Shown: positions 7,320 through 30,706, counted from the first letter of the stretch. The stretch is DNA of 64,000 nt from Candidatus Aminicenantes bacterium (GCA_030603565.1 JAUVXM010000003.1:1359-65358), one strand, 5' to 3'. Numbers and translations: made by a program. Notes: generated by a model from the letters alone, not told the origin.

Positions 7320-7476
7320 CGGAAAAAACAAAAGAACAATACAAGGACAAACTCAAACTTCTGAAAAAGGGCCTCCTACAGGATTTGTTAACCAGCAAAA
7401 TGGAGTTTAGGATTTAAGAGACACTAAGCTTGCTTATAGGGGAAAAAAAGGTTAAAATTATACTAACATAACTGAT

Positions 7477-8115
7477 ATGGCATATCCAATTCCAACTCCA
7501 ATTTATCACCTTACTCACATCGATAACTTGACCTCTATTATTCAGTCAGGAGGCTGCTTATCTTTTAACCAGATGCAAAATCAGGGGATTGGTCACATTG
7601 ATATTGCATACGAAACCATTCAAGCCCGCCGTGTACAAACATCAGTTCCATACGGTCCTGGAGGATGTTTACACGACTACGTGCCCTTTTTTTTTGCTCC
7701 ACGTCCCCCAATGCTCTATGCGATCCACGGAGGGAATGTGGAAGGATATGAACAAGGGCAGATCCCTCTCATTTATCTGGTTACAACAGCTCAAACTGTC
7801 AGCAATAGCAGCAGTGAATGGGTTTTTACAGATGGACATGCAACTATGGCATTTTCCGGATTTTTTGACGATCTAAATGACCTTGATGAGATCGACTGGG
7901 AGGTTATGGAGTCGCGATACTGGAATGATACGCCAACTCTGCCCGACAGAAAGCGCAGACGACAAGCAGAGTTTTTAATTAAAGATTGTTGTCCCTGGGA
8001 ATTGTTTTCAGAAATCGGGGTCATAAACTCACGAATGGGATCAAGGGCGGAAAATATTCTCGAAAAAAACAGACATCAACCAATTGTTCAGATACACGGG
8101 AACTGGTATTATTAG
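7477..8115 (+). CDS. darT: DarT ssDNA thymidine ADP-ribosyltransferase toxin (DUF4433)
   Basis: IYHLTHIDNLTSIIQSGGCLS at the N-terminus and RKRRRQAEFLIKDCCPWELFSEIGV at the C-terminus (catalytic Glu in the AEFL motif). Size 212 aa. Immediately followed by a macrodomain gene. Confidence 0.8.
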   Translation: MAYPIPTPIYHLTHIDNLTSIIQSGGCLSFNQMQNQGIGHIDIAYETIQARRVQTSVPYGPGGCLHDYVPFFFAPRPPMLYAIHGGNVEGYEQGQIPLIYLVTTAQTVSNSSSEWVFTDGHATMAFSGFFDDLNDLDEIDWEVMESRYWNDTPTLPDRKRRRQAEFLIKDCCPWELFSEIGVINSRMGSRAENILEKNRHQPIVQIHGNWYY

Positions 8116-8127
8116 AAGGAGGGAATC

Positions 8128-9195: not shown

Positions 9196-9225
9196 ATATT
9201 AAAATTCGAAGTCCTAGATCAGCGA

Positions 9226-10485: not shown

Positions 10486-10500
10486 CTATTTTTCCGACCC

Positions 10501-10535
10501 GTGAATAATTCAAGTCCGCCTGAACTATTCATAAA
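10501..10535. repeat. Solo TIR palindrome of the MITE family (right end and left end abutting)
   Basis: gtgaataattcaag tccg cctgaactattcataaaaa; lies between vapC and larA. Confidence 0.5.
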
Positions 10536-10924
10536 AATTGAAGTTTTAGCCTAATATTTTTATTGATCAGTTTAAAATGTGAATCTGCTGTAACTATAGT
10601 CAAATCATAATAAATAGCATGTGCAGCAATAATTAAATCTGTTAAAGGAATTGTATAACCTTTTTTTCTTAATCTGAATCCAATCTGGGATGTCTGTGCA
10701 AATATATTTTTATCAGTTTTTAGATGTTTAAAACCTTCAAAATTATTTTTGAGAAAGGAGAATTCTTTTTTATTAACTGCCCCAATAAGAAGCTCACTCA
10801 AAATAATACCATTATAATAGATTTTGTCTTCTTCAATTAAAGGCAGAAGAAAATCATTAACTGCTTTGTTCTTGCCTTTAAAAAAATCAATCCAAATTGT
10901 ACTGTCAATAATAAATTTACTCAT
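10529..10924 (-). CDS. vapC: PIN-domain toxin VapC
   Basis: 131 aa; IIDSTIWIDFF (N-terminal acidic residue), TIVTADSHF. Overlaps the upstream antitoxin by 8 nt. Confidence 0.75.
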   Translation of the reverse strand: MSKFIIDSTIWIDFFKGKNKAVNDFLLPLIEEDKIYYNGIILSELLIGAVNKKEFSFLKNNFEGFKHLKTDKNIFAQTSQIGFRLRKKGYTIPLTDLIIAAHAIYYDLTIVTADSHFKLINKNIRLKLQFL

Positions 10925-11232: not shown

Positions 11233-12441
11233 TTGACATCTGAACTTTCATATGATATTACGGCTCATATGGAATCTATTTCTGCCAAGCGCCTCCCCTA
11301 TTCAAAAATCCGGGTGATGTTTGATGCTGCTAAAAAACTGGAAAAACAGGGCAGAGATATCATCCATCTAGAGATCGGCCGGCCTGACTTTAACACACCC
11401 CAGCACATCGTAGAAGCAGCTATCGAGGCTTTAAAGGCAGGAAAGCACCACTACTCGGCCAATGCCGGCATAATCGAACTGCGGGAAGCAGTAGCTGAAA
11501 AATACGCATCTGAATATAAACTGAATTTCTCTCCAGAGTCTGAGATCGTGATCACAAACGGAGTGGCAGAAGGAGTCTTCCTGGTAATAAATGCCCTGCT
11601 TGATCCGGGAGACCAGGTTCTAATCCCTAATCCACGCTGGGTCAATTACGAACCGGATGCCTACACAAACTTTGTTGAACCAATAAGTTATACTCTGTTT
11701 GAGGAAAAAAACTTCCAGCCTGATCCTGAGGAGGTGGAGGAAAAAATCACCCCCCGGACAAAAATGTTGATTTTAGCCAGCCCCTCCAATCCTACCGGGG
11801 GGGTCACAAGTAAAAAAATTCTTGAACAGATTGCTGCGTTGGCTGAAAAACATAACCTCATAGTAGTAAGCGACGAGATCTACGAAAAGATCATCTATCC
11901 TCCCGCTGAACACATCTGTGCTGCATCCTTAGAGGGTATGCAAGAACGAACAATAGTGCTGAACGGATTCTCTAAATTTTACTCGATGACAGGCTGGCGG
12001 TTGGGATATGCTGTGGGCCCGCAAAAATTAATTGACCCGCTATTACGTTACCACCAATACATGATAACCTCGACCAACACTTTTGCCCAATGGGGTGCGG
12101 TGACAGCGCTTAAAGGAGACCAGAATCCGTCTCTTATAATGCGGGACAAATTCCAAAAACGGCGGGATTTTATCCACACTGCGGTCAATGAAATTCCCGG
12201 GTTTTGCTCTACCCTGCCGGCCGGAGCTTTTTATCTCTTCCCCTCTGTCAAAGAAACGGGGCAAAAAGGAATTCAGGTCGCAGAGATGTTACTTGAAAAA
12301 GCCGGAGTAGCAACAGTCGCTGGTGAGTATTTCGGTATAAAAGGAGCCGGGCACATCCGGATATCCTATGCCAATTCTATGGAAAACCTTAAAACTGCGG
12401 TTAAGAAAATTAAAGCTGTTATGATAAGCAGTGAACAGTAA
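11233..12441 (+). CDS. Class I/II PLP-dependent aminotransferase (aspartate/aromatic aminotransferase family)
   Basis: GFSKFYSMTGWRLGY (PLP lysine), NPTGG, PNPRW. True start may be the internal ATG at about 11269. Confidence 0.85.
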   Translation: MTSELSYDITAHMESISAKRLPYSKIRVMFDAAKKLEKQGRDIIHLEIGRPDFNTPQHIVEAAIEALKAGKHHYSANAGIIELREAVAEKYASEYKLNFSPESEIVITNGVAEGVFLVINALLDPGDQVLIPNPRWVNYEPDAYTNFVEPISYTLFEEKNFQPDPEEVEEKITPRTKMLILASPSNPTGGVTSKKILEQIAALAEKHNLIVVSDEIYEKIIYPPAEHICAASLEGMQERTIVLNGFSKFYSMTGWRLGYAVGPQKLIDPLLRYHQYMITSTNTFAQWGAVTALKGDQNPSLIMRDKFQKRRDFIHTAVNEIPGFCSTLPAGAFYLFPSVKETGQKGIQVAEMLLEKAGVATVAGEYFGIKGAGHIRISYANSMENLKTAVKKIKAVMISSEQ

Positions 12442-12614
12442 ATGGTAAATAGTAAATGGTAAATAAAACCAGGAGAAGCAGGGCTATAAAAGCTAATCGT
12501 CATTCCGGTGAGTTTAAGCATCGTCATTCCGGCGGAAGCCGGAAACCAGGATAAATAGTAAATGGTAAATAGATAATGGTTACCCTAAAAAATTCATAAA
12601 TCGCGGAGGTATTG

Positions 12615-15473: not shown

Positions 15474-18014
15474 ATGATATTAAAATCTAAAACAAAATTA
15501 TTCGGGAAAATATCTCTTCTGCTGTTTATTTTGGTTATCTGTACAACCATAGTTCCAGCAGAGCAGGAAAATCAGTTTAAGGAAGCTTACCTTAAACCGC
15601 CGGCATCCGTACAAGATTTACTCACCCGGGATAGGCATTACGATACTTTAAACAACCTAAGCCCTGATGGGACTCATTTTTTAATACCCATAAACTCCCA
15701 ATTTTCCTCTCTCAAACTAATGACCCAAAAAACCTACAGATTGGGCATGCTGGAGATCTGCCCGGATGTAAACCGGGAATGGCGGCTTTCAACCTATGGG
15801 ACAAAAAAGCTTAAGATCTATTCTTTAAGCCAAAGGAGAAGCTGGAATATCGGGCTTCCTGAAAATATCTTTGTAAGTGACATGACCTGGTCTCAGGATG
15901 GAAAAAAGATCGCCTTTCTGGCCCATTTTCCCAAGGGAAGCCAGGCATGGACTGCAGATGTCCAAAGCGGTAAAGCTAAAGCCTTGCACAAAGCCTTTGT
16001 AATGGCCACTTTGACAGGCCGCAGCCGTTGGGGGAGCTCCTCTTCAGCTTCACAGATGCTGCAGTGGACACCCCAAGGGACAGTTATAACCCTTCTTGTT
16101 CCGGACAACAGAGGCCCGGAACCAAAAAAGAGCCCTATTCCGGACTCTCCCATCATCCGCCACACACGCAAGAAAGATTCCCCGACATCTACTTACCCTT
16201 TTCTTATGAGGACATCTCATGACAAAAAGCTTTTTAAATATTATACCTACGCCCAGCTGGCAGAGTTTGCTCCGGGAAAATCTCCCCGGAAAATAGGCGA
16301 ACCAGCCATGTATATGAGTATCTCCTTAAGTCCAAACGGAAAATATATTCTTGTAGAAAAAATTGTTGAGCCGTTTTCCTATATCGTAAGTTACAGCAGC
16401 TTTCCCCGCGAACTTCAAGTAATGGATCTGAGCGGAAACATCCTGTCAACTGTCAGGAAAACCCCGCTTCGGGAAGCAGAGGCAGGGAATGGAAGAGACA
16501 GGTCTCAAGCTGATCTTCCCCGGAATGTCACCTGGAGACCTGACGGAAAAGGTCTGTCATTCCTCTGGAAAGAGCAAAAAGAAAAAGACAAGGAAGACGA
16601 TGAGGAAGAAGAAGAAAGTAATGCCAGTGAAAGAAAAGACAGATTGATGCTGCTGGCTCCACCCTTTTCTATGGATGAAACAACTACCCTTATCACCAGT
16701 AAAAAAAGCTTCAGCAGCATCTCATATGCCCCCAATGGCCGCTATGTTTTCACTAAGCTCAGCGGAAGAGGCGAAGACGGGCAGACCGGGACTGATCTGG
16801 CCGCTTTTGACCTTAGTCAAACTCCTCCCATAAAAACCATACTGCTTAAAGATATGGAAACCAAAGACCCGCTTAAATTTCCCGGAGATATCATAACTCA
16901 ATCCACAGGCAATGGAGTTGACTTTGCTCTCCTTTCCAGTGATGGAAAATCTATCTATCTCGAAGGCCGGGGGTATAAAGAAAATTTCAAGCCCCAGCCT
17001 TTTATCGACAGAATAGAGATCTCTACCGGCAAAAAAGAAAGGACCTTTGAGGGCGCAAAAGATTTCTACGAACGTCCGCTGGTTCCGCTTGACAATGATC
17101 TAAAGCGTATTATTATCAGCCGGGAATCCAAAACTGCTTTTCCCAACAGCTATCTATGGGAAAAAGACGGAACAGGAGAGAAGCTAACAAATAATAAGAC
17201 CCCTTACCCGGAATTAAAGGCCAGTAAAAGAATCGATTTTGAGTTTACCCGCAGAGACGGTCTTGAGATCCAGGGCCGCATCTCACTTCCCCCGGGTTAT
17301 GAGAAGGGAACCCGGGTTCCCGCTGTCTTCTGGACATATCCAAGCGAATATAAATCATTCAAAGATTATAAGCATTCTACCATACGAGGAGACAATCACA
17401 ATGCTTTCCAGCGCTTCAGCACCCGGAATGCATCGGATATATGGCTGACACAAGGATATGCAGTAGTTGTACCGGATATTCCTATTATCGGAAAGGGGAA
17501 CACTTACAACAACAATTTCATCGCTCATTTGGTTGACTCGATGTATGCCGCCATCCGCAAAGTCGGTAATCTCGGTTATGTTGATGTCGATCGTCTCGGC
17601 CACGGCGGCCACAGTTACGGTGCCTTTTCCACTGCGAATATTCTGGCGCACTCCCCCTTCTTTAAAGCCGGAATTGCCGGTGACGGAGCATACAACCGGA
17701 CTCTTACTCCCATGACTTTTCAGCGGGAACGGCGTTTCATCTGGGAAGCCCAGGACATATACCTGGAAATGTCCCCCTTCTTCCAGGCAGACCACATCGA
17801 TACTCCGCTTCTCATGTACCATGGAGCTGTAGATAACAACACCGGCACCTTCCTGATACAATCCGAGCGCATGATCCAGGCGCTGACCGGATTGGGAAAA
17901 AACGCCGTACTCTACATATATCCTTTTGAATCCCATGGCCCCCGCTGTAAAGAGACCTATATGGATATGTGGGCCCGCTGGCTGGAATTCTTCGACACTT
18001 ATGTTAAAAAATAA
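15474..18014 (+). CDS. Secreted S9-family serine peptidase (prolyl oligopeptidase / acylaminoacyl-peptidase-like; beta-propeller plus alpha/beta hydrolase domain)
   Basis: Signal peptide; GHGGHSYGAF (GxSxG) with downstream D and H blocks (MYHGAVDNNTG, FESHGP); acidic insert KEDDEEEEES. Confidence 0.8.
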   Translation: MILKSKTKLFGKISLLLFILVICTTIVPAEQENQFKEAYLKPPASVQDLLTRDRHYDTLNNLSPDGTHFLIPINSQFSSLKLMTQKTYRLGMLEICPDVNREWRLSTYGTKKLKIYSLSQRRSWNIGLPENIFVSDMTWSQDGKKIAFLAHFPKGSQAWTADVQSGKAKALHKAFVMATLTGRSRWGSSSSASQMLQWTPQGTVITLLVPDNRGPEPKKSPIPDSPIIRHTRKKDSPTSTYPFLMRTSHDKKLFKYYTYAQLAEFAPGKSPRKIGEPAMYMSISLSPNGKYILVEKIVEPFSYIVSYSSFPRELQVMDLSGNILSTVRKTPLREAEAGNGRDRSQADLPRNVTWRPDGKGLSFLWKEQKEKDKEDDEEEEESNASERKDRLMLLAPPFSMDETTTLITSKKSFSSISYAPNGRYVFTKLSGRGEDGQTGTDLAAFDLSQTPPIKTILLKDMETKDPLKFPGDIITQSTGNGVDFALLSSDGKSIYLEGRGYKENFKPQPFIDRIEISTGKKERTFEGAKDFYERPLVPLDNDLKRIIISRESKTAFPNSYLWEKDGTGEKLTNNKTPYPELKASKRIDFEFTRRDGLEIQGRISLPPGYEKGTRVPAVFWTYPSEYKSFKDYKHSTIRGDNHNAFQRFSTRNASDIWLTQGYAVVVPDIPIIGKGNTYNNNFIAHLVDSMYAAIRKVGNLGYVDVDRLGHGGHSYGAFSTANILAHSPFFKAGIAGDGAYNRTLTPMTFQRERRFIWEAQDIYLEMSPFFQADHIDTPLLMYHGAVDNNTGTFLIQSERMIQALTGLGKNAVLYIYPFESHGPRCKETYMDMWARWLEFFDTYVKK

Positions 18015-18322: not shown

Positions 18323-19690
18323 ATGCTTTTAGGTCTATCCATGATAAAAGGACTCATCTGTTTGGCCTTGATACCGAGCTTATTCCTCTCCCTTTCGGCG
18401 AAAAATACCCCGGATATAACTAATCTTGAGGAGCAAGTAAGATGGCTTAAGGAAAACGGTGTTTCCATTCGGACGGTGGCTCCAGATGATGAAGATTTTG
18501 CCGACCTTATGCCATTGGTGGATAAAATCGGTTCGTCCCGGCTAGTTCTTCTGGGCGAGCAAAGTCATGGCGACGGAACAACCTTTCTGATGAAATGTCG
18601 CTTGGTTCGCTTTCTCCATCAGGTCATGGGCTTTGATGTGTTAGCCTGGGAATCGGGACTATATGATTGCCGCCGGATGGAATCGGCGCTACACAGCGAT
18701 GTGCCCCTTGATATGGCGATCACGAAAGGAGTTTTTCCCATTTGGGGGATGAGCGATCAGGTCCGCCCTGTTTTCGCTTATGCCCGTTCCACTTATGGAA
18801 CCCCCCGTCCTCTTGAAATGGCTGGCTATGATTGTCAATTTTCTTCCCCAATGACCGTGACCTCGTTTGCGAAAGAGCTCACAGCTTTTTTAGAACGACC
18901 GGGAGAGAAGTGGATCTCTTCGGAGATGTTTTCAGGTTTAAAAAAAGCTGTCGATTTCCAGCAACTTGCAAAAATGACACCCGAAGAGCGCCGCGAAAAT
19001 CAGCAGGTCATCAAAAAAGTTGGCGACTTAATCGTAGCTTCGAAGCCAGTCCTACAAAAGGCACACAGTCAACGGGAGATAGCTTTCTGGGAACGTGTAT
19101 TAAAAAATTTTCAGGTATTTTATACACTGCTTGAGAACATGAGCAAAGGCAAAGACAGGAAGGTCTCAGATAATAACCCTCGGGATGAAGCCATGGCCGA
19201 GATCCTTATCTGGCTGGCGAATGACATCTACCCAGATCGCAAGATCATCGTCTGGGCTGCAAGCTTTCACAACATTCGCAACATAGAGAAAATTAATCTC
19301 GGTGATTCCCGCTTGGACTATGCAGGGGTCGTGACCATGGGGCAACGCATCTATGAAAGATTGGCGGATGACACCTATTCCATAGCCTTTACCGCATATC
19401 AAGGGGAGTCCGGAAATGTCAACCACAAAGAAACCTACGACATCGGCAAGGCTTCAGAGGGAAGCCTGGAGGATCTTATTCATCTAACCGGGAAAGAATT
19501 CCTTTTTGTGGATTTCATGCAGCCGCGTCTGAATCCGACTCACTGGCTTTGTCGTCCCATAACTGCACGTCCCCTCGGTTACACCCCAATGAAGACGGTA
19601 TGGCCTGAGCATTTTGATGCCATGATCTTCACTGAAAACATGATCCCAAGCACAAGGATTAAGAATAAGGACTTGAAAAAAGAGGAATGA
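18323..19690 (+). CDS. Erythromycin esterase family protein (Ere-like), secreted
   Basis: SSRLVLLGEQSHGDG, IIVWAASFHN blocks; signal peptide. GGAGG RBS. Confidence 0.75.
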   Translation: MLLGLSMIKGLICLALIPSLFLSLSAKNTPDITNLEEQVRWLKENGVSIRTVAPDDEDFADLMPLVDKIGSSRLVLLGEQSHGDGTTFLMKCRLVRFLHQVMGFDVLAWESGLYDCRRMESALHSDVPLDMAITKGVFPIWGMSDQVRPVFAYARSTYGTPRPLEMAGYDCQFSSPMTVTSFAKELTAFLERPGEKWISSEMFSGLKKAVDFQQLAKMTPEERRENQQVIKKVGDLIVASKPVLQKAHSQREIAFWERVLKNFQVFYTLLENMSKGKDRKVSDNNPRDEAMAEILIWLANDIYPDRKIIVWAASFHNIRNIEKINLGDSRLDYAGVVTMGQRIYERLADDTYSIAFTAYQGESGNVNHKETYDIGKASEGSLEDLIHLTGKEFLFVDFMQPRLNPTHWLCRPITARPLGYTPMKTVWPEHFDAMIFTENMIPSTRIKNKDLKKEE

Positions 19691-19729
19691 GCGGGTACTT
19701 TCCAGCTGTTTAATATATGTTAGCCGCCT

Positions 19730-20314
19730 TTGCCAAACAGTAAAGAGAAAGAACAGCCGATGTTAAATTTTACAATCGAGACTCTCAATCTATCACGCCA
19801 ATATGGAAAACTTACCGCTGTTGACAATCTAAACCTGAAAGTCCCTTTCTCGAGTGTGTACGGCTTCTTGGGGCCAAACGGCGCAGGCAAGACTACCACG
19901 ATTCGCATGTTGCTTGGCCTTATTCGCCCCACACAAGGTCAAGTGCAATTGTTCGAGACACCTCTTGAGAATAATCCAATCACACTTCTAGGGCGTATGG
20001 GCGCATTGGTCGAGTCGCCATCGCTCTATCCGCACTTGACGGGATATGAGAATTTGGAAGTCACGCGAAGGCTCACCAGAGCAAAACGCGAACAGATCAC
20101 GCGTGTGCTATCCATTGTGAAGATGGAACAGGATGCTCATCGCCGCGTCCGTGAATACTCACATGGGATGCGCCAACGTTTGGCTTTGGCGCTTGCATTG
20201 CTCAGCGAGCCGGAACTGCTCATTTTGGATGAGCCCACGAACGGGCTTGATCCCTCTGGCATCCGCGAAATGCGGGAGTGTAAAAGGCAAGGACTTTTAC
20301 ATACCTTGCGGTAA
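19730..20314 (+). pseudogene. ABC transporter ATP-binding protein, truncated after Walker B/D-loop
   Basis: GPNGAGKTT (Walker A), YSHGMRQRLALA (signature), LLILDEPTNGLD (Walker B/D-loop), then premature stop at 194 aa with no H-loop or C-terminal domain. No permease partner follows; a repeat solo-TIR and an AT-rich tract lie downstream. Confidence 0.6.
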
Positions 20315-20407
20315 GGATAAATACATAAGTCGAACGAAAACAAAGTTTTCAAAGTGTTTCCCCAAAAATCAAAGGAACATACTGAAAATACAGAAATTAA
20401 ATTAAAC

Positions 20408-20434
20408 ATCGACATTTTTTATGAATAGTTCAGG
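20408..20434. repeat. Solo right TIR of the MITE family
   Basis: atcgacattttttatgaatagttcagg. Confidence 0.55.
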
Positions 20435-20537
20435 TTAATAGGAACACCCATTATATTTCTGTTTACCATTGGCATTGCATCTCAACTTTCCCTTTCCAGC
20501 ACTTCCTGCTAGAATAAAATCTCATCGCTTCGCTCCG

Positions 20538-20605
20538 GCGAGGGGGTGGGATTTTGCACCGGAATCAGGTGGGACTTTCCCTCCGGAATGGGTGGGTATT
20601 TTGTA
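20538..20605. repeat. Iteron-like tandem array, about 2.7 x 23 bp (GGTGGGAYTTTSCMYCGGAATSA)
   Basis: ggtgggattttgcaccggaatca / ggtgggactttccctccggaatg / ggtgggtattttgtattg in a roughly 600-bp AT-rich intergenic tract. Confidence 0.4.
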
Positions 20606-21010
20606 TTGTATGAAGCTTTTTATAAAAAAATGAGAGTTTTAATCAGGGAAAAAGAAAAAGCTCTGCGAATTATCCAAACAGCAACAAATTATGAAACAGG
20701 TTTTTATGCTATTTGCGAAAATAGATTAGTATGTATTGCGGGAATATTAATATAAACACTAAAGATAGTGACGTAATAAATCTATCTAAATTCGAATATT
20801 TTGTCTGTTTTCTGTCCGGAAATAATTTTGTCATTTTTCCTGGAAAAACATGGCTGCATGATTCCAATCTGCAATCACATTTTGCACAAAATGAATAAAT
20901 TATCAGCGAAGTAAATATTAGAATTATCGCAATATATAGCACAGCACTTATTAATGAAAACTTTGCAATCGAAAATAATCCAATACAAATTGTAACCATG
21001 AAAAAAGAAA

Positions 21011-21038
21011 TTGACAATTTTGTTTTTCATGGTATACT
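21011..21038 (+). promoter_or_regulatory. Sigma-70-like promoter for the AAA ATPase gene
   Basis: TTGACA - 16 nt - TATACT, ending about 5 nt before the ORF. Confidence 0.4.
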
Positions 21039-21044
21039 TTAGGT

Positions 21045-22202
21045 GTGATTAAAAGAAAAAAATACATAAGGTTAATAAAAAGGGCGCTTGAACGAAGCCG
21101 GGCTGTGGCGCTTTTAGGCCCTCGCCAATGTGGAAAGACCACCTTGGCTCAAGAGTTGGTCGATATTCATTCCCCAAATTATTTTGATCTGGAAGATCAA
21201 AGTAGTCTGATCGCTCTGGCTAATCCCAAGAGTGTTCTTGAACCTTTGAAGGGTTTGGTTGTTATAGATGAGGTTCAGCAATGCCCCGAACTCTTTCCTG
21301 TTTTGCGCGTCCTTTTAGACCGAAAACCCCTGCCTGCAAAATTTCTAATTCTTGGAAGTGCATCACCGGACCTCCTACGACAGTCGTCAGAATCCCTTGC
21401 AGGACGATTGGAATTGATTGAAATGGGCGGGTTTGATCTAGCGGAAATCGGGCAGAATAAAGATTCCTTGCTTTGGTTGCGCGGCGGATTCCCGTTATCA
21501 TTTTTATCTAAGAATGATAAGGATAGCTTTGCCTGGAGAAAAAGTTTTATTAAGGCATTTCTTGAGAGGGATTTACGGGAACAGGGAATTGACCTGCCGT
21601 CTGTGACTCTGCATCGTTTTTGGGCCATGCTTGCCAACAGTCATGGCCAGATTTGGAATGCGGCACCGATTGCCTCTTCATTAGGGATATCGGAACCCAC
21701 GGTCAGAAAATATATGGATATTTTTACAGGTGTATTTATGGTGCGTCAACTTCAGCCTTGGTACGCAAATATCAAGAAGCGTCAGGTCAAATCTCCAAAG
21801 GTTTATATTCGTGATACAGGAATATTGAATTCATTTTTGGAATTGAGGTCTGAAGCTGAAATTTTGCGTCATCCTTCCTCCGGAGCGTCTTGGGAAGGAT
21901 TTGTCATCGAACAATTGATTCGCTCCCTTGAACTGGACTATGTCTATTTCTGGGCGACGCATCAGGGAGCGGAGATCGATCTTGTTTTCTCAAAAGGCGG
22001 AAGAATGTTCGGCATTGAGATCAAACGGGCGGACGCGCCGTCCATGACGCCCTCCATGCGCATTGCACTTGACGATTTGAAGCTAGAACACATCGTCGTC
22101 GTTTATCCTGGGAAGAAGTGTTACTCGCTTCATAAGAAAATTGAAGTCGTTTCTTTGGATGAAATTTTGGGCGGGATGAACCATATATTTGGAAAAGGAT
22201 AA
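21045..22202 (+). CDS. AAA-family ATPase (AAA_14 plus DUF4143 type)
   Basis: LLGPRQCGKTT (Walker A), VVIDEVQ (Walker B); C-terminal DUF4143-like region. Confidence 0.75.
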   Translation: MIKRKKYIRLIKRALERSRAVALLGPRQCGKTTLAQELVDIHSPNYFDLEDQSSLIALANPKSVLEPLKGLVVIDEVQQCPELFPVLRVLLDRKPLPAKFLILGSASPDLLRQSSESLAGRLELIEMGGFDLAEIGQNKDSLLWLRGGFPLSFLSKNDKDSFAWRKSFIKAFLERDLREQGIDLPSVTLHRFWAMLANSHGQIWNAAPIASSLGISEPTVRKYMDIFTGVFMVRQLQPWYANIKKRQVKSPKVYIRDTGILNSFLELRSEAEILRHPSSGASWEGFVIEQLIRSLELDYVYFWATHQGAEIDLVFSKGGRMFGIEIKRADAPSMTPSMRIALDDLKLEHIVVVYPGKKCYSLHKKIEVVSLDEILGGMNHIFGKG

Positions 22203-22964
22203 AAACAGTCAAATGCAAATTTTGAACCTGTGACTTATATCGTGTGTAAAAGGTACAAAAAAAAGAAAAGGAAGTTTAGAAGGCATAACAATCGGATGCT
22301 GCCGACAGTCATAAGAACACGGATTCATGCAATATCCGCAGCTGAGCCTCAACGTTATACTTCAACTAATATATCCAGCAATAAAGCCGAAATAATTTGT
22401 AAATAAAAGGTGATTGGTCATCTTTAAAGGGGACAGGTGCTTTAAAGAAGAGCACCAGTCCCCAGAATGACTGCAAAGCAACTCCTCCCGGATTCTATAT
22501 GTCAACTCTCCCCCCCAAATCACAAGTCAACATTTTTATTCACTTTTCGTATACATATATATATAGTGAAAAAGAAAAAAAGCCCCCTAATCAGAGTCAG
22601 GCTGCTTAATTCTCTGCTCCGGGTTTCGGTGCGGGAAGCAAGGGCCGCCCGTTCTGATCCGGTAAAATCTCTGCGGTATGAGTAGCTAACAAACCATTTC
22701 CATAAAATTAAAGCCGGCTCACTTGAGCTGTTTATCCTTAGAATCGGATTGATTCCGGTTCTGGCCGCTTGGATCTGGGGCAGCACAGTATCGGACAATT
22801 GGTTTTTGTAATGAAAGAGGGAGATGTTTTTACTGAATTTCTTCGTTGAAGGAAATCCTTAGAAATGTGTCAAAATGAAATCATTGCTTGACAATAATTT
22901 CTATATTTTATATATATGGTTATATATATATTTAATTTAATTATTATACACATTGGAGTAGCTT

Positions 22965-23960
22965 TTGACCGATACTAAAATTATAAACGACAAGCTGACA
23001 AAAATTCCCTGCCTGCGTCTGGCAAACCGCCCGACTCCCATTGAGACCTGTCCTTTTCTCAAAGCCTGTCTTCAATCCTCCCCCAACATTTACATAAAGC
23101 GGGATGACTATATCGGATACCTGGTCGGAGGAAATAAAGTTCGCAAACTGGAATATATGATGGCGGACGCTGTGGAGCAGAAGACAACTGCCGTATTGAC
23201 AGTGGGTTCGGTACAGTCAAATCATGCCCGCACCACAGCCATGGTCGCCCGGAGATTCGGCCTGAAATGTGAATTAATCCTCAACGGCGACCCCCCCGAT
23301 CCCCCTTGCGGGAACTATCTGATCAACAGGAAGCTTGAAATTCCCATCCACCTTATACCGTCCCGGGAGGACCGCTGCCAAAAGATGGAATCCGTAGCCG
23401 CCCGAATGGAGTCAGAAGGAGAAAAAGTCTACCGTATTCCGCTGGGAGCATCGGACAGCCTGGGCACTCTTGGATTCGTCACAGCATTCGCGGAACTTCT
23501 GACGCAGGAAGCCGAGTTGGGGATCCGCTTCGATCACATCATCATCTCCAGTTCTTCCGGAGGAACCCAGGCCGGACTCGAGATCGGCAAACGCCTGTTC
23601 AATCGTCCGGAAATGGATATCATCGGGATCAGCCCCGATGACCCCAGTCAGAGCATAAAACAGACGATCATTGAAATAGGCCTTCCTGTTCTCAAAGATT
23701 TCGGATCCTCGCTGGGAATCTTGGAAAAAGAGATAGAAGTCGATGAGAATTTCATCGGAGAAGGGTATGGATCGCCCACACAAGCTTCATTGGAAGCCAC
23801 TAAGATGCTTAATCAACTGGAGGGCATCCTGCTCGATCCTGTCTATACAGCCAAGGCCGCAGCGGCGCTGCTGGCCTTTGTTCGAGCCCGCCGCTTCAAA
23901 CCAGATGGAAATGTACTTTTCTGGCATACCGGAGGCTTGATCAGCCTTTTTTGTCTCTAA
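22965..23960 (+). CDS. PLP-dependent D-cysteine desulfhydrase / ACC deaminase family protein
   Basis: GGNKVRKLEY (PLP-lysine motif of the ACC deaminase/DcyD family), SSSSGGTQAGL glycine-rich loop; TTG start with GGAG RBS. Confidence 0.75.
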   Translation: MTDTKIINDKLTKIPCLRLANRPTPIETCPFLKACLQSSPNIYIKRDDYIGYLVGGNKVRKLEYMMADAVEQKTTAVLTVGSVQSNHARTTAMVARRFGLKCELILNGDPPDPPCGNYLINRKLEIPIHLIPSREDRCQKMESVAARMESEGEKVYRIPLGASDSLGTLGFVTAFAELLTQEAELGIRFDHIIISSSSGGTQAGLEIGKRLFNRPEMDIIGISPDDPSQSIKQTIIEIGLPVLKDFGSSLGILEKEIEVDENFIGEGYGSPTQASLEATKMLNQLEGILLDPVYTAKAAAALLAFVRARRFKPDGNVLFWHTGGLISLFCL

Positions 23961-24245
23961 CCGGCTCTCAACCGTTATATCTATCTCAGCTTGCGCCAAA
24001 TACCATCCCACCGAACCTTCAGGCGCTTCACCCACCTTGTGTTCGATCAGGGCTCCGTTCTGCTCGCTTTCAGGATCCATCAGGCGAGCCTGGAATCCTC
24101 CCCGGTTGAAAGCAAAACCTAAGCTGTAATACTTATCACCAAGCAGATCCTTGAGATACGCTCCCATGGCCTTATATCCCGGCCCCCAACCGGCATTGGA
24201 AATATGCCCGTTATGCGCCCATACAAGGAGCCTGATAGATCCCAT
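23960..24245 (-). pseudogene. C-terminal fragment of a second erythromycin-esterase-family gene
   Basis: IRLLVWAHNGHISNAGW...YYSLGFAFNRGGFQA aligns with the C-terminal third of the intact Ere-like gene (IIVWAASFHNIRN...YSIAFTAYQGESG). No N-terminal two-thirds is present. The ORF-track extension below 23960 overlaps dcyD and is not homologous. Confidence 0.55.
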
Positions 24246-24333
24246 TGATCTTGAAAGCCAGATCTTTGGCCAAGGAGATTTCGAATCTTACATTGACGGC
24301 GTCTGAACAGGGACGTTTGAGGCCCAGCTCGAC

Positions 24334-24669
24334 ATGAGCCGGCCCGAATTCAAACAGATAATCCGACTGGCATCTGAATATAGAACTGTTCTGACACCTA
24401 CTGCGGTGGTTTTAGAGCCGATCGACCCATCACAGTGCAAGATGGATGAACAGAAATCTTATTTTACACCCGAGGCCTGGGCAGTGGTGGAGAAACGTCT
24501 GGCCAAACCACTATTCCCAAATGCGGCTGAGATAATGCGCAACTGCCGGGAATTCATTCACCAAGCCTGGCAGGCGGGCTGTATCCTGACAACCGGCACA
24601 GACCAGGTAGGATTTACCCTTCTGCCCGGCTACAGTATTTGGCGTGAAATGGAGATTTTTTATGAATAA
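24334..24669 (+). pseudogene. Internal fragment of an amidohydrolase-family gene
   Basis: GCILTTGTDQVGFTLLPGYSIWREMEIFYE matches the amidohydrolase ..GTD... PGxSLHxELELL block. Too short (111 aa) and lacks the N-terminal metal-binding HxH. Confidence 0.45.
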
Positions 24670-24744
24670 TCCAGGCTGCTCAGGGACTGACTTAATCTCA
24701 GGGAGAATCCATAATATGGACAAACCGGTAAATTTTACGGAATA

Positions 24745-24774
24745 ATTGATATTTTGGAATAACTTTTGTTATAA
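24745..24774 (+). promoter_or_regulatory. Sigma-70-like promoter upstream of the GntR gene
   Basis: TTGATA - 18 nt - TATAAT. Confidence 0.35.
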
Positions 24775-24804
24775 TATAAATTTATAAACGTCAGGGTTGC
24801 AAAA

Positions 24805-25785
24805 ATGATTAATTGGTTTATCGAAAAAGAAAACAAGATACCACTTTACCTTCAGCTTAAGGATCTGATCAAATATTACATTTCAACAGGTGTGCTCAAG
24901 GATCATCAGCAGCTACCAGGTGTCAATGAACTGGCTCGCCAACTTGACATAAACTTTGACACCGTCCGAAAAGCTTACAAAGAGCTCGAAAAAGAGTATC
25001 TGGTGACGATGAAAAGGGGCACCGGCACCTTTGTCAATCTGAGCGAATCCAGCCTTCCGGACATCACTCCGGAAACTCATTACGAGCTGGACCCGCTGGA
25101 GTCCGCCAGAATCCTGATCCGCCGGATGCTGAGACAGGGAATGACACTGCCGGCAATTGAAAAACTTGTTCAAAAAGCGATCACCGAAGTATCCTGGGAC
25201 GAAGAACGGCAGTATCTCATCTTTACCGAATGTAATATGCTTCAAGTTAAAGAGATATCAGCCATTCTGGAAGAGTACCTGAGCCTCAAGGTCCGGCCGG
25301 TCCTGCTGACAGATCTGAAGAAAGCGCTGACTTCGCTGCCAAAATCTAAGGGGAAACTGCTGGCAATCATTACAACCGGTTTCCATGTCAATGAGGTTCA
25401 AGGCCTACTGGGTAACCAAGCCGTCGATGTGCATGTATTGGTTACCAATATGTCTCCGGAAACTAGGCGTTTATTGGAGGATTACCGGGAAAATGCTCAT
25501 TTCGGATTTATCTGCCGGGATCAGAAGTCGATACCTTTCTACACAGACCTGCTAAAATCCGAACTCGGGCGGGATATAAAGTTTTCCTCCAGTACTCTGG
25601 CGGATAATTCCAAGATGCGATCGGTTATCGAAAAAGCGGATGCGCTGCTGGTGACTCCTCCTGTGTTTAAGGCCGTAAGTAGCCAGGCTCCGGATAACAA
25701 ACCTGTTTATAATGTTCTTGATCGAGTCGATCCCATGTCTCTCAGACTGTTGAAAGACAACATATTTCACATAAACCGCAGCTAA
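24805..25785 (+). CDS. GntR-family transcriptional regulator with uncharacterised C-terminal domain
   Basis: N-terminal winged HTH: PLYLQLKDLIKYYISTGVLKDHQQLPGVNELARQLDINFDTVRKAYKELEKEYLV..RGTGTFV. Confidence 0.75.
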   Translation: MINWFIEKENKIPLYLQLKDLIKYYISTGVLKDHQQLPGVNELARQLDINFDTVRKAYKELEKEYLVTMKRGTGTFVNLSESSLPDITPETHYELDPLESARILIRRMLRQGMTLPAIEKLVQKAITEVSWDEERQYLIFTECNMLQVKEISAILEEYLSLKVRPVLLTDLKKALTSLPKSKGKLLAIITTGFHVNEVQGLLGNQAVDVHVLVTNMSPETRRLLEDYRENAHFGFICRDQKSIPFYTDLLKSELGRDIKFSSSTLADNSKMRSVIEKADALLVTPPVFKAVSSQAPDNKPVYNVLDRVDPMSLRLLKDNIFHINRS

Positions 25786-25890
25786 AGAGACCGTCAGCCC
25801 TAACAGGACATCGCCGGGCAAGGGAGCTCAACATCATCCGATAATAATTGGGGGACCACATAATTAAAGGATATCTCTCCCAGGAATCCA

Positions 25891-26583
25891 TCAATTTTTT
25901 GTTAAAAGCAGAGCTTTGCCATTGAATATATTATTAAATTCACCTTCGGAAATACAGATTTTTCCATTTACCAGAACATAAGCGACGCCGGTGCTGTACT
26001 GGTGCGGTTTCAGGAAAGTCGCATTATCCCGGACAGTGTTCCGATCGAATATCGCTATATCAGCCTTATATCCTTCGAGAAGCAGTCCTCTTTTCCGCAG
26101 CCTCAGCAGCTGAGCCGGAAGGGAGGTCATCTTACGGATTGCCGCTTCCAAGGACATAAGCTTTTCTTCCCGGACGTATTTTCGCAGCACCCGGGTAAAC
26201 GAACCATAATTGCGGGGATGTGTCCCTCCCCGTCCAAATGGGATCGCTCCGCCGTCAGATGAGAGGTATTGATCCTGATGCCGGATTCACGTCCGATCGT
26301 GATAGTCTCTGCGACCGCTTCCCCTAGTTTTTCCTCTTCACTGCGCATATGGCTGGAGTAGATGCCGCCGTATGGTCCCAAAACCTGCCAACTGCACTGC
26401 GTTGGTGCCGATCCCCTGCTCATTCCAGAGTTCTGCGATCTCGGCAATATTAAGCAGCCCATAACCGCAGTTCCCCGTGACAACCGTGGTCACACCCTGG
26501 GATAAATAATTGACGATTTTACCTTCCGCGTTTATGATCCGGGCAGCCGAATATCCGGACAAGTCACCGATCTTTACAATCAA
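25891..26583 (-). pseudogene. N-acyl-D-amino-acid deacylase (D-aminoacylase, amidohydrolase family) split into three frames
   Basis: Frame A (26338..26583): GVTTVVTGNCG. Frame B (26127..26483): HMRSEEEKLGEAVAETITIGRESGIRINTSHL. Frame C (25891..26190): SLEAAIRKMTSLPAQLL..GYKADIAIFD. All are D-aminoacylase blocks in N-to-C order but in three different frames. Confidence 0.65.
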
Positions 26584-27143
26584 ATCGCCTCAAAACCGAG
26601 CTTGGTCAAACCGGTCAGATTCGGGACCAGAGAACCTCCGGCGAAGGCATTGCTGTAATGATGGTTAAATTGACAGATCCGCAGTCCCAGCTCATAAAAA
26701 ACATCCATCATTTCCAGGTCCTCGGAAATGGATTCCAGGCTTTGAAATTGCAGGAAAACAGCGATCTTCCCGTTCTTGTAGGCTTGCTTTATCTGGCTGC
26801 CCCGGGTAGCAAGAAAGAGTCCATCCTGGTTATCCCTTAATAATCGATTGGCTTTAACGATCGACTTCAGAGTAGGAACAAGACTGCGGATAAATTTCCC
26901 ATCCACGATATCACCAGCGGAAACATCCCAAATTAAACCGCTTAAGCCGGATTTCGCAAGGTCGCCTTTACGGGCGCCAAAAAAAGTCAGCCCATCAAAA
27001 TACAGGGGATGGGGAGGCTCTGCATTCCTGGCCGCTGAAAACCTCGATCCATTCAACATTAAGGCCGCCCCAGCTGCAGCTTTGGCGCTTCCGAATATAA
27101 ACTCTCTTCGTTTCATATTCTTTTTCTCCTTAAATTTAAGCAT
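26580..27143 (-). pseudogene. N-terminal fragment of a TAT-secreted membrane-dipeptidase (peptidase M19)-like gene, abutting the D-aminoacylase pseudogene
   Basis: MKRREFIFGSAKAAAGAAL (twin-arginine signal); LGLRICQFNHHYSN resembles the M19 GVRxLTLTHN block; only about 150 mature residues. Its stop overlaps the next reading frame by 4 nt. Confidence 0.45.
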
Positions 27144-27307
27144 TTCCGCCGGATTTTTTGCCCGGATATAAATATATTACAGCTTGACAAATTCCAGCCT
27201 CCTGATAATATGATTATATATATAACCATATGTTTAAGTAAATGATACAGTCATCATTAAAAAAATTCAAGTGTTAAAACGGCCCTAGGGGCTAAAGGAG
27301 GCATTTT

Positions 27308-28528
27308 ATGCAAAAAAATCCAGCGAAAAAACCTATTCCGACTTTACTACTTTTTATCAGCCTGGTCTTATCCTGCGTTTATGTCAATGCTGGAACAGAA
27401 ACGCCCAAAGAATTCCAACAGATCATGACAAAATTTAAAACCTTTTATGAAAAATCTTTAAAAAAACACAGTATTGTCGGCAGTTCCTTTATGTTTATTT
27501 ATGACAACCGAGTCCTGGCCCGGGAGGATTACGGGCTGGCCAATAAGGAACTTGACCGCCCGGTTGACAAAGACACCATCTTTCACTGGGCTTCAATAAC
27601 AAAAACCTTTTGCGGCATCGCTATAATGCAGCTGCGTGACCGGGGACTTTTAAAGTTGGATGATCCTATCATCAAGTACATCCCTGAACTCAGAAATGTC
27701 CACAATCCCTTCGGGAACATGAGTGAGATCACTATAAGGCATCTGATGAGCCACAGTTCCGGATTCCGGGGCTCATCCTGGCCCTGGAAAAGCAAGGCCT
27801 GGCACCCGCATGAACCTTTGCATTGGGAGCAACTGGTCGCCATGATCCCTTATACTGAGATCCATTTCAAACCGGGCAGCAAGTGGAGTTACTCCAATCC
27901 CGGCATAATTTTTCTGGGCAGAGTGGTGGAACTGCTAACCACCGATGACTGGGAAGTCTATATCGATAAAAACATTTTTAAGCCTCTCAAAATGTACCAC
28001 AGCTATTTCGACACTACCCCTTATTATCTGATGAAAGATAAAAGCCAAAGCTACTGGATCCGGAAAGGAAAGCTTGTCCCCGCAATCCCTGATGTCAATA
28101 CCGGCATCACTGTTGCAAACGGCGGCTTGAAATGCCCTTTTGATGACTTTTTTAAATACATCAATTTTCTTATGGGAGACGCAACCAAAACTGATATTTA
28201 TGACCAGGTACTAAAAAGATCCTCTCTGGAAGAAATGTTCCAGGCTCAGATCGAAATCGCCCGGTTCGAGGCTGATTTCCCAGGAGAAAACCGCCGGGAT
28301 TCAATGGGCCTGACATTCTTTCTTGAGGACAACTACAATATGAGTTTTGTCTGTCACAGCGGCGGGCAAAACGCTTACGTGACCCATTTTTATCTTAATA
28401 CCAAGGACCGTACGGCCTATGTGGTGGGATTCAATACAACAGGACGTGACAAGGAACAAAGCACCCGTGTTCTGGACCGGGAGATAAAAGAATTCCTTTT
28501 CCGGAACGTCTTCCCTCTTTTTAATTAA
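27308..28528 (+). CDS. Secreted serine hydrolase of the beta-lactamase/PBP4-like family
   Basis: Signal peptide; HWASITKTF (SxxK active-site motif); AAAGGAGG RBS. Confidence 0.8.
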   Translation: MQKNPAKKPIPTLLLFISLVLSCVYVNAGTETPKEFQQIMTKFKTFYEKSLKKHSIVGSSFMFIYDNRVLAREDYGLANKELDRPVDKDTIFHWASITKTFCGIAIMQLRDRGLLKLDDPIIKYIPELRNVHNPFGNMSEITIRHLMSHSSGFRGSSWPWKSKAWHPHEPLHWEQLVAMIPYTEIHFKPGSKWSYSNPGIIFLGRVVELLTTDDWEVYIDKNIFKPLKMYHSYFDTTPYYLMKDKSQSYWIRKGKLVPAIPDVNTGITVANGGLKCPFDDFFKYINFLMGDATKTDIYDQVLKRSSLEEMFQAQIEIARFEADFPGENRRDSMGLTFFLEDNYNMSFVCHSGGQNAYVTHFYLNTKDRTAYVVGFNTTGRDKEQSTRVLDREIKEFLFRNVFPLFN

Positions 28529-28546
28529 TCGAATAATCTTCTAAGG

Positions 28547-28586
28547 AAAAAAAGGCGGCTTTAAACGAAGCCGCCTTTTTTTATGT
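28547..28586. terminator. Bidirectional rho-independent terminator
   Basis: aaaaaaaGGCGGCTTtaaacgAAGCCGCCttttttt between convergent genes. Confidence 0.6.
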
Positions 28587-28596
28587 AGATAAGAAT

Positions 28597-30350
28597 TTAG
28601 AAAACAATTCGACATCCCAGCATAGCGATCCGAGGTGCTTGGATGCCCATAACCTGGTCGAGTTCATAATAAGGATTGCCGACCTGAGAATACAAGCTGG
28701 TAGTCCCATTAAGATTCAGCACATTGTAAACTTCTGCAAAAAAGCTCAACTTTACCTGCTTGATATTGAAATCTTTGGCGATACGCACGTCCCAATAATG
28801 AGTAAAAGGCGTCCGGCGCTTATCGGGGGCCTCCGCTGGAAAACTGGTCATGCCTTGATTGAGACGCGTCTGAAAATAATAACCATAGGGATAACCCGAT
28901 CTGCCATTATAGGCCGTGCTAAGGACAAAACCTAGAGGCGCCATATAGATTCCCTGGAACTTTATGACATGGGCGTGGTCTCCGCTTAAAAGTCCATAGT
29001 TGTTGATGGTGTAATTGGGATCGTTCCAGGGTCCGGTTGCCTTCATACTGCTCGATGTGCTGGTGGTACCTTTAAGCTGACTGTATGTGTAGCTCAGGCG
29101 AAACTGAAAGTTGTGCGACATGCGTTTTGTGAGCTCAAAAATTAGCGCCCGGTATGATCTTTCTGCGCGGGGATCATTATTATAGTAGTCTACCGGATCC
29201 GGAGAGTTCATGTTCCAGTTGTAAACAGTCATGGCTTCTCCGGTCAGCGGGTTGGTCACCTGGATCGGATTATACCATTCTTCAGTACGAGCACTGTCTA
29301 TGATAGTGATAAAGTCTTTGAACTGCCGGTCGACAAAATTCAGCTTGATCAAAAAATCTTTACCGATGTTACGCTCGACCGAGACAAACACCTCGTTCAC
29401 ATAGGGTCGCTTCAAATCTGAATCGATTTCAAAAGCATAGGGGGACGAAGAGAACAGCGGATAAAACTGTCCCGGGCCCAATATGTAGTACATGTTCATA
29501 GTAGAGCTATTGGGATTGAGTCCATAGAACCAGGTCCACATCATGGTGGCATAACGTGAAAAACTCAATTTTATCCCGGATTTTCCATCACCGAAGGGAT
29601 CGATCCCCAGGGCGATCCGCGGTTCAAGGGTTTTCCAATCAGCGATGGGCAGTTTGATTGTCTGCTGGTGTTGAGGCGGAGTATAAGCATCGATATAGTT
29701 AAAACGAAATCCAATGTTAAGATTGATGAAACGATTGATTCGCCCAGGAATCCTGTGCGAAAACAGCGAACTGATTATAGGGATCAACATTGGTGTCCAT
29801 CTCCGGAGGATCGAAACTGATGGACATATAAGGAACTCCGTTCATAGTGTAATACATGCCCATCCCGTATTCATCCGGGAAATAATTAGCGGCATTACGA
29901 GACTCTCCGCGCTCATATTCGATCCCGGCCTTCAGTTCATGGTCGCCTGCCATATCATCGATAAAACGGGTGATATTGACTTTAGCCTGCCAGCGGAGCC
30001 GTTCCTGTAAACAGTCATTGCTACTGCCCGGATCGGTCTCATCCACAACCGTCCCGGCCATGATAAAGATACCCTGATGTAAACTCTACCGGTTCACCGC
30101 TGCGAATCAATTCCTTCTGTGCGGGAAGGTTATCTATGTTATCCTCAAGATAAAGCCACTCCAAATGAACCCGGCCCTTGATCTGTTTTAATTTTCTGAC
30201 ATGGATAATCCCTTCTTCGCCGCCGGTCACAGGTTGCTGTGCGGATGCAGGAAAGAAAAATCCGAAGCCGAGCAAAATAAATATAAAAAAACCGCAGCGG
30301 AAAAACAACTTCTGTTGATACTTTTCATCTGCATATGACATTTCCTGCAT
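28597..30350 (-). pseudogene. Oar-like TonB-dependent outer-membrane barrel gene, frameshifted into three pieces and internally deleted
   Basis: Pieces 30039..30350 (signal peptide plus N-domain), 29717..30061 and 28597..29790 (barrel C-terminus ending ...RIVF). Paralogues 32499..35564 and 35839..38853 are about 1020-1040 aa, whereas this locus spans only about 580 codons. Confidence 0.6.
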
Positions 30351-30567
30351 AAATATTATAAGTCAGTCATTTCCTTATGTCCAGCAACGGTGATTACATT
30401 TTTCCCTTTTTCGGAAACGAACATGAAATTTAAAAACCAATCACTCGGTAACTGGCAACGATACGCACAGCTTATGATTTAACGGCAGGTGGTTCTTACG
30501 CCAGACGCGATGAATTTGAGGATGTCCCGGAATCCCTCTATAACTCGTTATTTGTGGGCTCACTTAA

Positions 30568-30582
30568 CCTGAATAATTCACG
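30568..30582. repeat. Solo TIR-end motif of the MITE family
   Basis: cctgaataattcacg. Confidence 0.35.
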
Positions 30583-30706
30583 CAGCAGGAGTGTGCCCTG
30601 CAGAAGTAACTTTTTGTGCACCTAAGCAATACCACAATATATTTAGTGGATAAGTTTATGTATTTGACAATCAATCATGGCAGTGTTAAGGTTTTTTTCA
30701 CAGATC

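Follow-up and report, generated by a model that had tools for sequence, protein, structure and literature searches.

The stretch analysed here, called the window throughout, is a 64,000-nt chromosomal piece from Candidatus Aminicenantes bacterium (GCA_030603565.1 JAUVXM010000003.1:1359-65358) with a G+C content of about 43%. It encodes Oar-like outer-membrane barrels, GWxTD/TPR proteins, a resistance-nodulation-division (RND) efflux operon, and an island with type I restriction-modification and DarT/DarG genes. The subject of this work is the interval 19730-30350 (about 10.6 kb; all coordinates follow whole-window numbering), where fragments of genes lie among full-length neighbours encoding a DUF4143 ATPase, a PALP enzyme, a GntR-family regulator, a beta-lactamase-fold hydrolase (bla-like) and NhaC. 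Intact genes account for 40% of positions 19691-30676, as counted from the gene coordinates, and elsewhere in the window 83% of the sequence lies in open reading frames (ORFs) of 150 aa or longer. The closest homologues of the D-aminoacylase and Ere sequences are labelled Aminicenantes or Acidobacteriota.

Window proteins were compared with the Pfam and NCBIfam profile libraries, and Rfam was used for RNAs. Metagenome contigs of relatives, retrieved by chimeric homologue searches and gene-context look-ups, served as comparators; their full-length proteins were matched to the window by tblastn, and the junctions were compared individually at the nucleotide level. Among these contigs are L004 (Logan SRR24302412), L006 and L007 (JGI 3300017613 and 3300021179) and L001 (JGI 3300040952, 4170 nt). 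The features of the interval are the following.

19730-20314, plus strand: truncated ABC-2-type ATPase that keeps Walker A, signature motif, Walker B and D-loop
20315-20438, minus strand: partial repeat element, with one terminal repeat present and the other missing
21045-22202, plus strand: intact AAA_14/DUF4143 ATPase
22509-22694, plus strand: MacB-type permease remnant, residues 57-110 of 924
22802-22852, plus strand: 3' end of amidohydrolase-1, last 17 codons and stop
22965-23960, plus strand: intact PALP enzyme of the D-cysteine desulfhydrase/CuyA family, 331 aa
23970-24233, minus strand: Ere2 remnant (Ere family), residues 309-396 of 472
24232-24339, minus strand: TonB-dependent/Oar-like receptor remnant, 36 codons, residues 614-649 of 893
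24322-24666, plus strand: amidohydrolase-2 remnant, residues 270-384 of 464
24805-25785, plus strand: intact GntR-family regulator, 326 aa
25894-26589, minus strand: D-aminoacylase remnant, about 230 of 544-560 residues, in pieces in three different frames (26356-26589, 26250-26387 and 25894-26265)
26583-27143, minus strand: N-terminal half of an M19 dipeptidase, residues 1 to about 180 of 372
27207-27232: conserved palindrome ATATGATTATATATATAACCATAT in the M19/bla divergent promoter
27308-28528, plus strand: intact beta-lactamase-fold serine hydrolase (bla-like), 406 aa
28597-30076, minus strand: Oar-like TonB-dependent barrel remnant, C-terminal residues (about 490), with the N-terminal ones (about 400) gone
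30039-30350, minus strand: ORF in a third frame, with a start that resembles a signal peptide

The earlier note on this DNA had reported six damaged loci here (the ABC ATPase, the Ere and amidohydrolase fragments, the D-aminoacylase, the M19 dipeptidase and the Oar-like barrel). Partial profile matches and tblastn to full-length orthologues identified all six as gene remnants, and the list turned out to be incomplete, with three more remnants in the MacB-type permease, the amidohydrolase-1 end and the 36-codon receptor piece.

The note had also pointed to orthologous loci in related genomes as a check, and this comparison revealed the cluster in its intact form. In L004, L006 and L007 the gene order is Ere1, amidohydrolase-1, PALP, Ere2 (opposite strand), a TonB receptor of 893 aa (opposite strand), amidohydrolase-2 and GntR. 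The MacB-type permease upstream of Ere1 is full length (924 aa) in L006 and L007; in L004 the contig ends within it, leaving a partial ORF of 94 aa. L003, L002 and L106 share the order bla-like (opposite strand), M19, D-aminoacylase and S41 peptidase. Apart from the MacB of L004, the cluster genes at these loci are all full length. These relatives are 75-85% identical to the window at the nucleotide level, with protein identities of 77% for PALP, 79% for GntR and 86% for the bla-like protein. Only these three genes survive in the window, promoters included; the other cluster genes match it solely as collinear, same-orientation fragments, in pieces of 50-560 nt or, for the Oar-like remnant, about 1.5 kb. 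Full-length syntenic orthologues of the remnants were found in L001-L004, L006, L007 and L106, with the ABC ATPase as the exception. Internal gene fragments cannot be ancestral, and therefore the change is a loss in the window's lineage.

Concerning the left part of the cluster, the MacB-type piece is 78% identical to L006/L007 over 115 nt (tblastn E = 5e-5). Judging from the gene order in L006, the deletion that joins it to the amidohydrolase-1 end would have taken about 5 kb. The conserved PALP promoter region comes next, followed by the PALP gene, which has the same length as in the relatives. A deletion of 251-254 nt starts 2 nt past the PALP stop codon and leads into the Ere2 remnant, which covers positions 218-303 of 358 in the Pfam Erythro_esteras profile. 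The earlier description of this fragment as C-terminal needs correction, as it is a real remnant that is internal and C-proximal; the ORF that bears it (23787-24245) is antisense to PALP outside the homologous part. A deletion of 1733 nt separates Ere2 from the receptor piece (75-78% aa identity, E = 1e-10; 77.6% nt identity to L006), and another of 2861 nt, joined via a 20-nt imperfect overlap, separates this piece from amidohydrolase-2. A single 4.6-kb deletion from Ere2 to amidohydrolase-2 was considered and rejected, as the 36-codon receptor piece sits between them. The amidohydrolase-2 remnant, an internal fragment as first reported, corresponds to the final 70 positions of Pfam Amidohydro_3. 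Its 3' end was lost in a deletion of 196-276 nt, and the break is fused to a copy of a dispersed repeat motif via a common ATTTTTT. The GntR gene that follows has the relatives' length and a conserved promoter.

The intact Ere gene just upstream of the interval (18323-19690) is only about 40% identical to the relatives' Ere1. By this low identity it is taken to be a paralogue, the orthologous Ere1 being entirely gone from the window; whether it arose as a paralogue or by foreign acquisition, either origin may apply. Its named best matches (46-48% identity) include larger multi-domain Planctomycetota proteins. The idea that the Ere fragment is a recent duplicate of this neighbouring gene was discarded, as there is no paralogue match at E < 1e-3.

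Regarding the D-aminoacylase, about residues 43-66, 91-141, 193-238 and 421-544 are kept (numbering of L003), and the internal deletions are 72 nt in frame, about 184 nt and about 562 nt. The 72-nt loss takes out the PGFIDMHTH metal-binding motif (HxH). The three frames noted earlier are real, and they exist because of the deletions of about 184 and 562 nt and not because of single-base errors. The adjoining M19 fragment is indeed N-terminal, aligns with residues 1-177 of the relatives' protein, matches positions 41-167 of 319 in the Peptidase_M19 profile and breaks exactly at 26583/26582. Here a deletion of about 0.8 kb joins M19 codon ~180 to D-aminoacylase codon ~59, with GATT shared at the junction.

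The comparison with L001 gives a relative date for this last event. L001 is 95.7% identical to window positions 30081-26583. Its M19 gene is complete, the beginning of its D-aminoacylase is still present, and the match with the window ends exactly at 26583. The M19/D-aminoacylase deletion is therefore younger than the split between the window and L001. There are only four indels between the two sequences in about 3.4 kb, all within M19 or the Oar-like gene. One is the window's own, a 1-nt insertion (+1 G) at 29743, which is the only single-base frameshift mapped in the window and is read through in L001. The other three belong to L001: a 24-nt loss that removes the conserved PRIxLxxDP motif, a 2-nt insertion causing a frameshift, and a 21-nt in-frame loss in M19. 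L001 thus carries lesions in the same genes, and therefore both lineages degrade the module independently.

The insertion at 29743 splits the Oar-like remnant into two pieces backed by homology (29744-30076 and 28600-29742), which correspond to about residues 387-893 of the 893-aa receptor paralogue. The remnant covers positions 515-680 of 838 in OMP_b-brl_4, and has neither the plug nor the beginning of the barrel. The barrel had been reported in three pieces, and two of them stand. The third, the ORF at 30039-30350, showed no homology to receptor N-termini and had no relative among the fetched loci; the Oar-like gene may originally have begun here.

At the left edge of the interval, the ABC ATPase is truncated, as the earlier note had it. 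It covers positions 2-137 of 137 in ABC_tran, 2-166 of 223 in galliderm_ABC and 2-163 of 302 in DrrA. Its homology stops near 20277, just past Walker B and the D-loop, so that the H-loop and the C-terminus are absent, and no ABC sequence was found downstream of the break in any frame. Among the fetched loci there was no relative of this fragment or of the DUF4143 gene. A chimeric homologue search that combined the Ere gene beside it, the ABC fragment and the Oar-like remnant returned only Ere-family proteins at no more than 48% identity. The DUF4143 ATPase is missing from the relatives' syntenic loci, and for this reason it is regarded as a non-ancestral neighbour of the remnants.

Taken together, the deletions recognised number at least 11 and range in size from 72 nt to about 5 kb, and the coding DNA removed from the interval amounts to about 13 kb in total, including the missing receptor N-terminus. 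The seven junctions inspected show 1-20 nt of microhomology. Several deletions end a few nucleotides from the stop codons or promoters of retained genes; ends that hug the retained genes in this way are a signature of selection and not of assembly error. The parts that have gone are catalytic or structural: the HxH motif of the D-aminoacylase, the H-loop of the ABC ATPase, the plug and N-terminal barrel of the receptor and, in a permease outside the interval, the second SNT motif. Moreover, the ratio of nonsynonymous to synonymous substitutions (dN/dS) of the remnants against distant relatives is 0.04-0.13, and that of the intact PALP, GntR and bla genes is 0.035-0.11. The M19 promoter/operator region differs from that of L001 at a single base. 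With a dN/dS as in intact genes and this promoter nearly unchanged, the remnants must be fresh.

These results argue, with fairly high confidence, that a catabolic module which the lineage could largely do without was genuinely and recently lost from the interval through deletions. The process is ordinary gene decay, although its local density is unusually high, and no new kind of system. Ongoing decay was one of two explanations offered in the earlier note, and it is the one favoured by the collinear internal fragments, by a loss that followed a split at 96% identity and by the independent lesions in L001. The original cluster would have comprised two TonB-dependent receptors, two Ere hydrolases, two Xaa-Pro-dipeptidase-like amidohydrolases, an M19 dipeptidase, a D-aminoacylase and a MacB-type transporter, together with a PALP lyase, a beta-lactamase-fold hydrolase and a GntR-type regulator. 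This module may have become largely dispensable in the window's lineage, under relaxed selection and a deletional bias. Spontaneous deletions would then have built up, probably by illegitimate microhomology-mediated recombination or replication slippage, and selection would have halted them only at the edges of PALP, GntR, the bla-like gene and their promoters.

The role of the cluster can be proposed from its gene content. In NCBIfam both amidohydrolases are nearest to the Xaa-Pro dipeptidase model, and the bla-like protein falls among class-C beta-lactamase/D-aminopeptidase-type serine hydrolases; the cluster may thus have served the import and hydrolysis of peptides or D-amino-acid compounds. 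Furthermore, an AT-rich palindrome, ATATGRTTATATATATAACCATAT, recurs at two conserved places, the PALP upstream region and the divergent M19/bla promoter, in the window as well as in L001-L004, L006 and L007, and overlaps the promoter at each place. In the window, a half-site at 22913-22928 upstream of PALP overlaps the PALP promoter. The palindrome is plausibly a candidate operator of the cluster's GntR-type regulator, and its presence at both places suggests a single regulon.

Several observations weigh against the loss of a single module by deletion. The junctions that are the window's own rest on one assembly, and none has been independently re-observed. No syntenic relative was found for the ABC ATPase locus or for the GntR/D-aminoacylase junction, and the reconstructed ancestral order stops short of these two places. 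Three damaged genes lie outside the interval, and a broader genome-wide process is possible. Between the window and L001, dN/dS is 0.21-0.27 in the Oar-like remnant (0.21-0.31 for the remnants overall) and not about 1; this low value is tentatively attributed to very recent inactivation and/or recombination from functional alleles, rather than to retained function. The divergence between the two sequences is also a mosaic, with 0.4% in the bla-like gene (5 differences in 1221 nt) versus 4-8% in the flanking M19 and Oar-like remnants, a pattern suggesting that the bla-like segment was recently exchanged by homologous recombination or swept.

The strongest rival explanation is that the whole genome is under reductive evolution, due to a small effective population or a new restricted niche, and that the interval is simply a dense patch of it. 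The damage outside the interval speaks for it, and consists of the following genes.

1946-2395, plus strand: hsdR reduced to its N-terminal nuclease domain, 149 aa
32148-32212, plus strand: S9 peptidase relic, a 65-nt copy 89% identical to 17884-17948 in the intact S9 gene
57434-58243, plus strand: DASS-family permease with an internal deletion, 269 aa versus 489-493

These three had been named in the earlier note together with two ORF6N copies; the ORF6N proteins each span the full ORF6N profile, which gives no sign of damage. The DASS permease has lost about 220 aa in frame, with the junction near 57995-58003 (GTP|IIIA) and CCTATC shared. Its truncation at a repeat motif was also considered and rejected, as the C-terminus is native and the lesion internal. 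Genome-wide erosion would also fit the 14 copies of a dispersed repeat in 64 kb and the deletions that L001 gathers in the same genes. However, about 9-10 remnants are found in the 10.6 kb of the interval versus 3 in the other 53 kb, a contrast that points to the loss of one functional module and not to uniform erosion. In addition, long intact genes fill the rest of the window (the 83% ORF coverage given above), and the dN/dS of the intact genes corresponds to strong purifying selection. On the evidence of this single 64-kb window, erosion of the whole genome is considered unlikely.

The dispersed repeat is of interest in its own right. Its intergenic core, ATCGACATTTTTTATGAATAGTTCAGGTTAA, has 14 copies in the window versus 0-1 expected by chance, at these positions.

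1645-1776, 10519-10544, 20315-20438, 24650-24681, 43161-43557, 43920-43945, 45516-45674, 51253-51278, 57195-57348 and 58239-58264: repeat copies with the core ATCGACATTTTTTATGAATAGTTCAGGTTAA

The full unit is about 155 nt long with terminal inverted repeats of 27-31 nt, present at 57195-57348 (31-nt, perfect), 45516-45674 and 1640-1776; a larger unit of about 255 nt lies at 43273-43532. Positions 57191-57352 fold into a 31-bp stem (-47.9 kcal/mol, z = -9.2). An exact 25-mer of the repeat is found in more than 95 stretches, almost all of which belong to Aminicenantes metagenome-assembled genomes (MAGs), and the idea that it is specific to the window's lineage was rejected on this ground. Across 653 kb of Aminicenantes loci there are 132 copies, only 2 of them within ORFs, and they either precede a start codon by 0-40 nt or directly adjoin a stop codon. 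The repeat is not present in L001-L007 and has no Rfam match. Many copies are flanked by TTAA or TA, and no filled/empty pair of orthologous sites was found. In the two loci examined for a transposase between inverted motif pairs (L010 and L046; pairs 1.4-2.7 kb apart) there was none; what lies between the paired motifs is ordinary coding sequence, for an aminotransferase and a GWxTD protein. A sigma-70 promoter was rejected as its identity: there is no correctly spaced -10, it often abuts the stops of convergent genes, and ordinary TTGACA-like/TATAAT promoters serve the tRNA-Leu and GntR genes. The copy 3' of the DASS gene holds its position across species (about 70-75% nt divergence), including relatives with the intact gene, which suggests constraint rather than recent transposition.

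In its architecture the repeat looks like a Correia/REP-type element. With the Correia elements of Neisseria and with REP/BIME repeats the unit shares its length of about 155 nt, the terminal inverted repeats, the TA/TTAA-rich flanks, the intergenic position at gene ends, the many copies and the long hairpin. Unlike these elements, it has a copy that is positionally conserved across species, and no sequence relation to them is known. Public MAGs titled "uncultured Eubacteriales bacterium" (L010, L013, L024 and others) carry the Aminicenantes-type repeat; in two of these loci it adjoins Aminicenantes-like genes, and the taxonomic labels look wrong.

A second rival holds that these hairpin-forming elements caused the truncations, acting as fragile sites or as recombination partners. 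Two breaks do lie at element copies, the partial copy at 20315-20438 that abuts the ABC truncation point and the one at 24650-24681 fused to the amidohydrolase-2 3' end, and the 31-bp stem of the full element would suit a fragile site. Nevertheless, no element is near the three D-aminoacylase junctions or the M19/D-aminoacylase, PALP/Ere2, Ere2/receptor, receptor/amidohydrolase-2 and DASS junctions. The element is normally found at gene ends, so truncations that reach into spacers will often land beside one, and the motif by the DASS gene is already in place in relatives whose gene is intact. A repeat-driven hotspot is rated as improbable.

The remaining explanation, that systematic indels, chimeric joins or chimeras from multiple displacement amplification mimic deletions, has in its favour that the window-specific junctions are found in no other assembly and that the frameshift at 29743 is absent from L001, but it is very hard to maintain when that lone 1-nt frameshift lies in a run of just 3 bases, the frame changes of the D-aminoacylase are large deletions, the remnants are all collinear and in their original orientation, the deletions stop a few nucleotides from the stops and promoters of kept genes, all window ORFs of about 770-1040 aa are unbroken, the independent contig L001 contains 3.5 kb of the region, the Oar-like remnant among it, and has lesions of its own, and the intact genes have no indels against relatives at about 96% identity (0 gaps in 2714 nt of L053, JAUWTR010000088.1 from MAG CSMAG_2585, 95.65% identical to window 61047-63760, and 0 gaps in the 1221 nt of the L001 bla-like gene). 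A De Bruijn assembler needs a long exact repeat to make a mis-join, and most chimeras that arise in amplification are inversions. The suggestion of systematic indel error made in the earlier note is hence not sustained.

Returning to deletion-driven loss of one module, a more far-reaching version of it is that the population is in a phase of unusually active, deletion-driven genome reduction, in which dispensable modules are shredded within less than 4% divergence and the end-points are possibly seeded by a hairpin-forming intergenic repeat that is family-wide. This is a doubtful extension at present. To our knowledge, neither an active deletion phase nor repeat-seeded deletion has been described for the Aminicenantes lineage, and literature searches on Aminicenantes with pseudogenes or inverted repeats brought up nothing relevant.

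Other searches and regions of the window complete the picture. Exact-sequence matches to four window proteins (bla-like, GntR, PALP and a 111-aa remnant ORF) were absent from the collection searched. A representative-genome scan gave no GntR relatives, and a metagenome scan only relatives of 72%, 51% and 34%. Visual inspection, with no further search, of the stop-to-stop ORFs (40 aa or longer) in the stretches that were still dark brought out no recognisable sequence. The sole Rfam match in the window is one tRNA-Leu. This gene (CAG anticodon, 43748-43835) has a canonical TTGAAA-N17-TATAAT promoter and lies in a repeat-rich spacer (43100-45680), which an eRF1-like gene (baeRF family 10, 44377-45522) adjoins. 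Short tandem and dispersed copies of AATAGTAAATGGTAAAT occupy 12434-12580, between the aminotransferase and M14 peptidase genes. Upstream of the sulfatase-TPR gene, the window's spacer at 63761-63910 exceeds that of L053 (2715-2744) by about 120 nt, and homology returns at 63911. Positions 1946-10924 form a defence-type island with these members.

Truncated hsdR (listed above)
Fused hsdM-hsdS ORF, 845 aa
Two ORF6N proteins
RadC
7477-8115: DarT
8128-9195: macro-domain DarG-like protein
10529-10924: PIN-domain protein

As for what these findings mean, about 6.5 kb of annotation should be labelled as remnants and not as short hypothetical proteins, and the truncated ORFs should not be read as metabolic capacity. 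The results suggest that an Aminicenantes lineage has recently given up TonB-dependent scavenging of peptides or D-amino acids that its relatives keep. The locus is also a clean natural example of how genes disappear, by many independent, medium-sized deletions bounded by selected genes, and the ordered relics and intact comparators let each deletion event be reconstructed.

The closest known process is the decay of bacterial pseudogenes under a deletional bias, which Mira, Ochman and Moran (in 2001) and Kuo and Ochman (in 2010) are said to have described. As there, dispensable genes are inactivated and whittled down by deletions, the remnants are short-lived, and kept genes limit the deletions. 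The window differs in its extreme local density, since no fewer than 9 remnant genes and 11 deletions fall within 10.6 kb, in remnants with almost no decay by point mutation, and in lesions that are mostly deletions of 70 nt to 5 kb and not frameshifts or stops. A second parallel is offered by Mycobacterium leprae, Sodalis glossinidius and Shigella, the pseudogene-rich genomes of recently restricted bacteria. With these the window shares a high proportion of fragmentary genes and proliferating small repeats, whereas here the decay is known for one module in an environmental uncultured lineage, and no expansion of insertion sequences and no transposase was seen in the window. Finally, the locus resembles the strain-level loss of loci that combine a TonB receptor, hydrolases and a regulator, in that a co-regulated uptake cluster with an operator-like palindrome is lost and relatives keep it. 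In contrast to a clean excision or replacement, however, the cluster of the window was lost piecemeal, leaving ordered relics, and its regulator and two enzymes survive.

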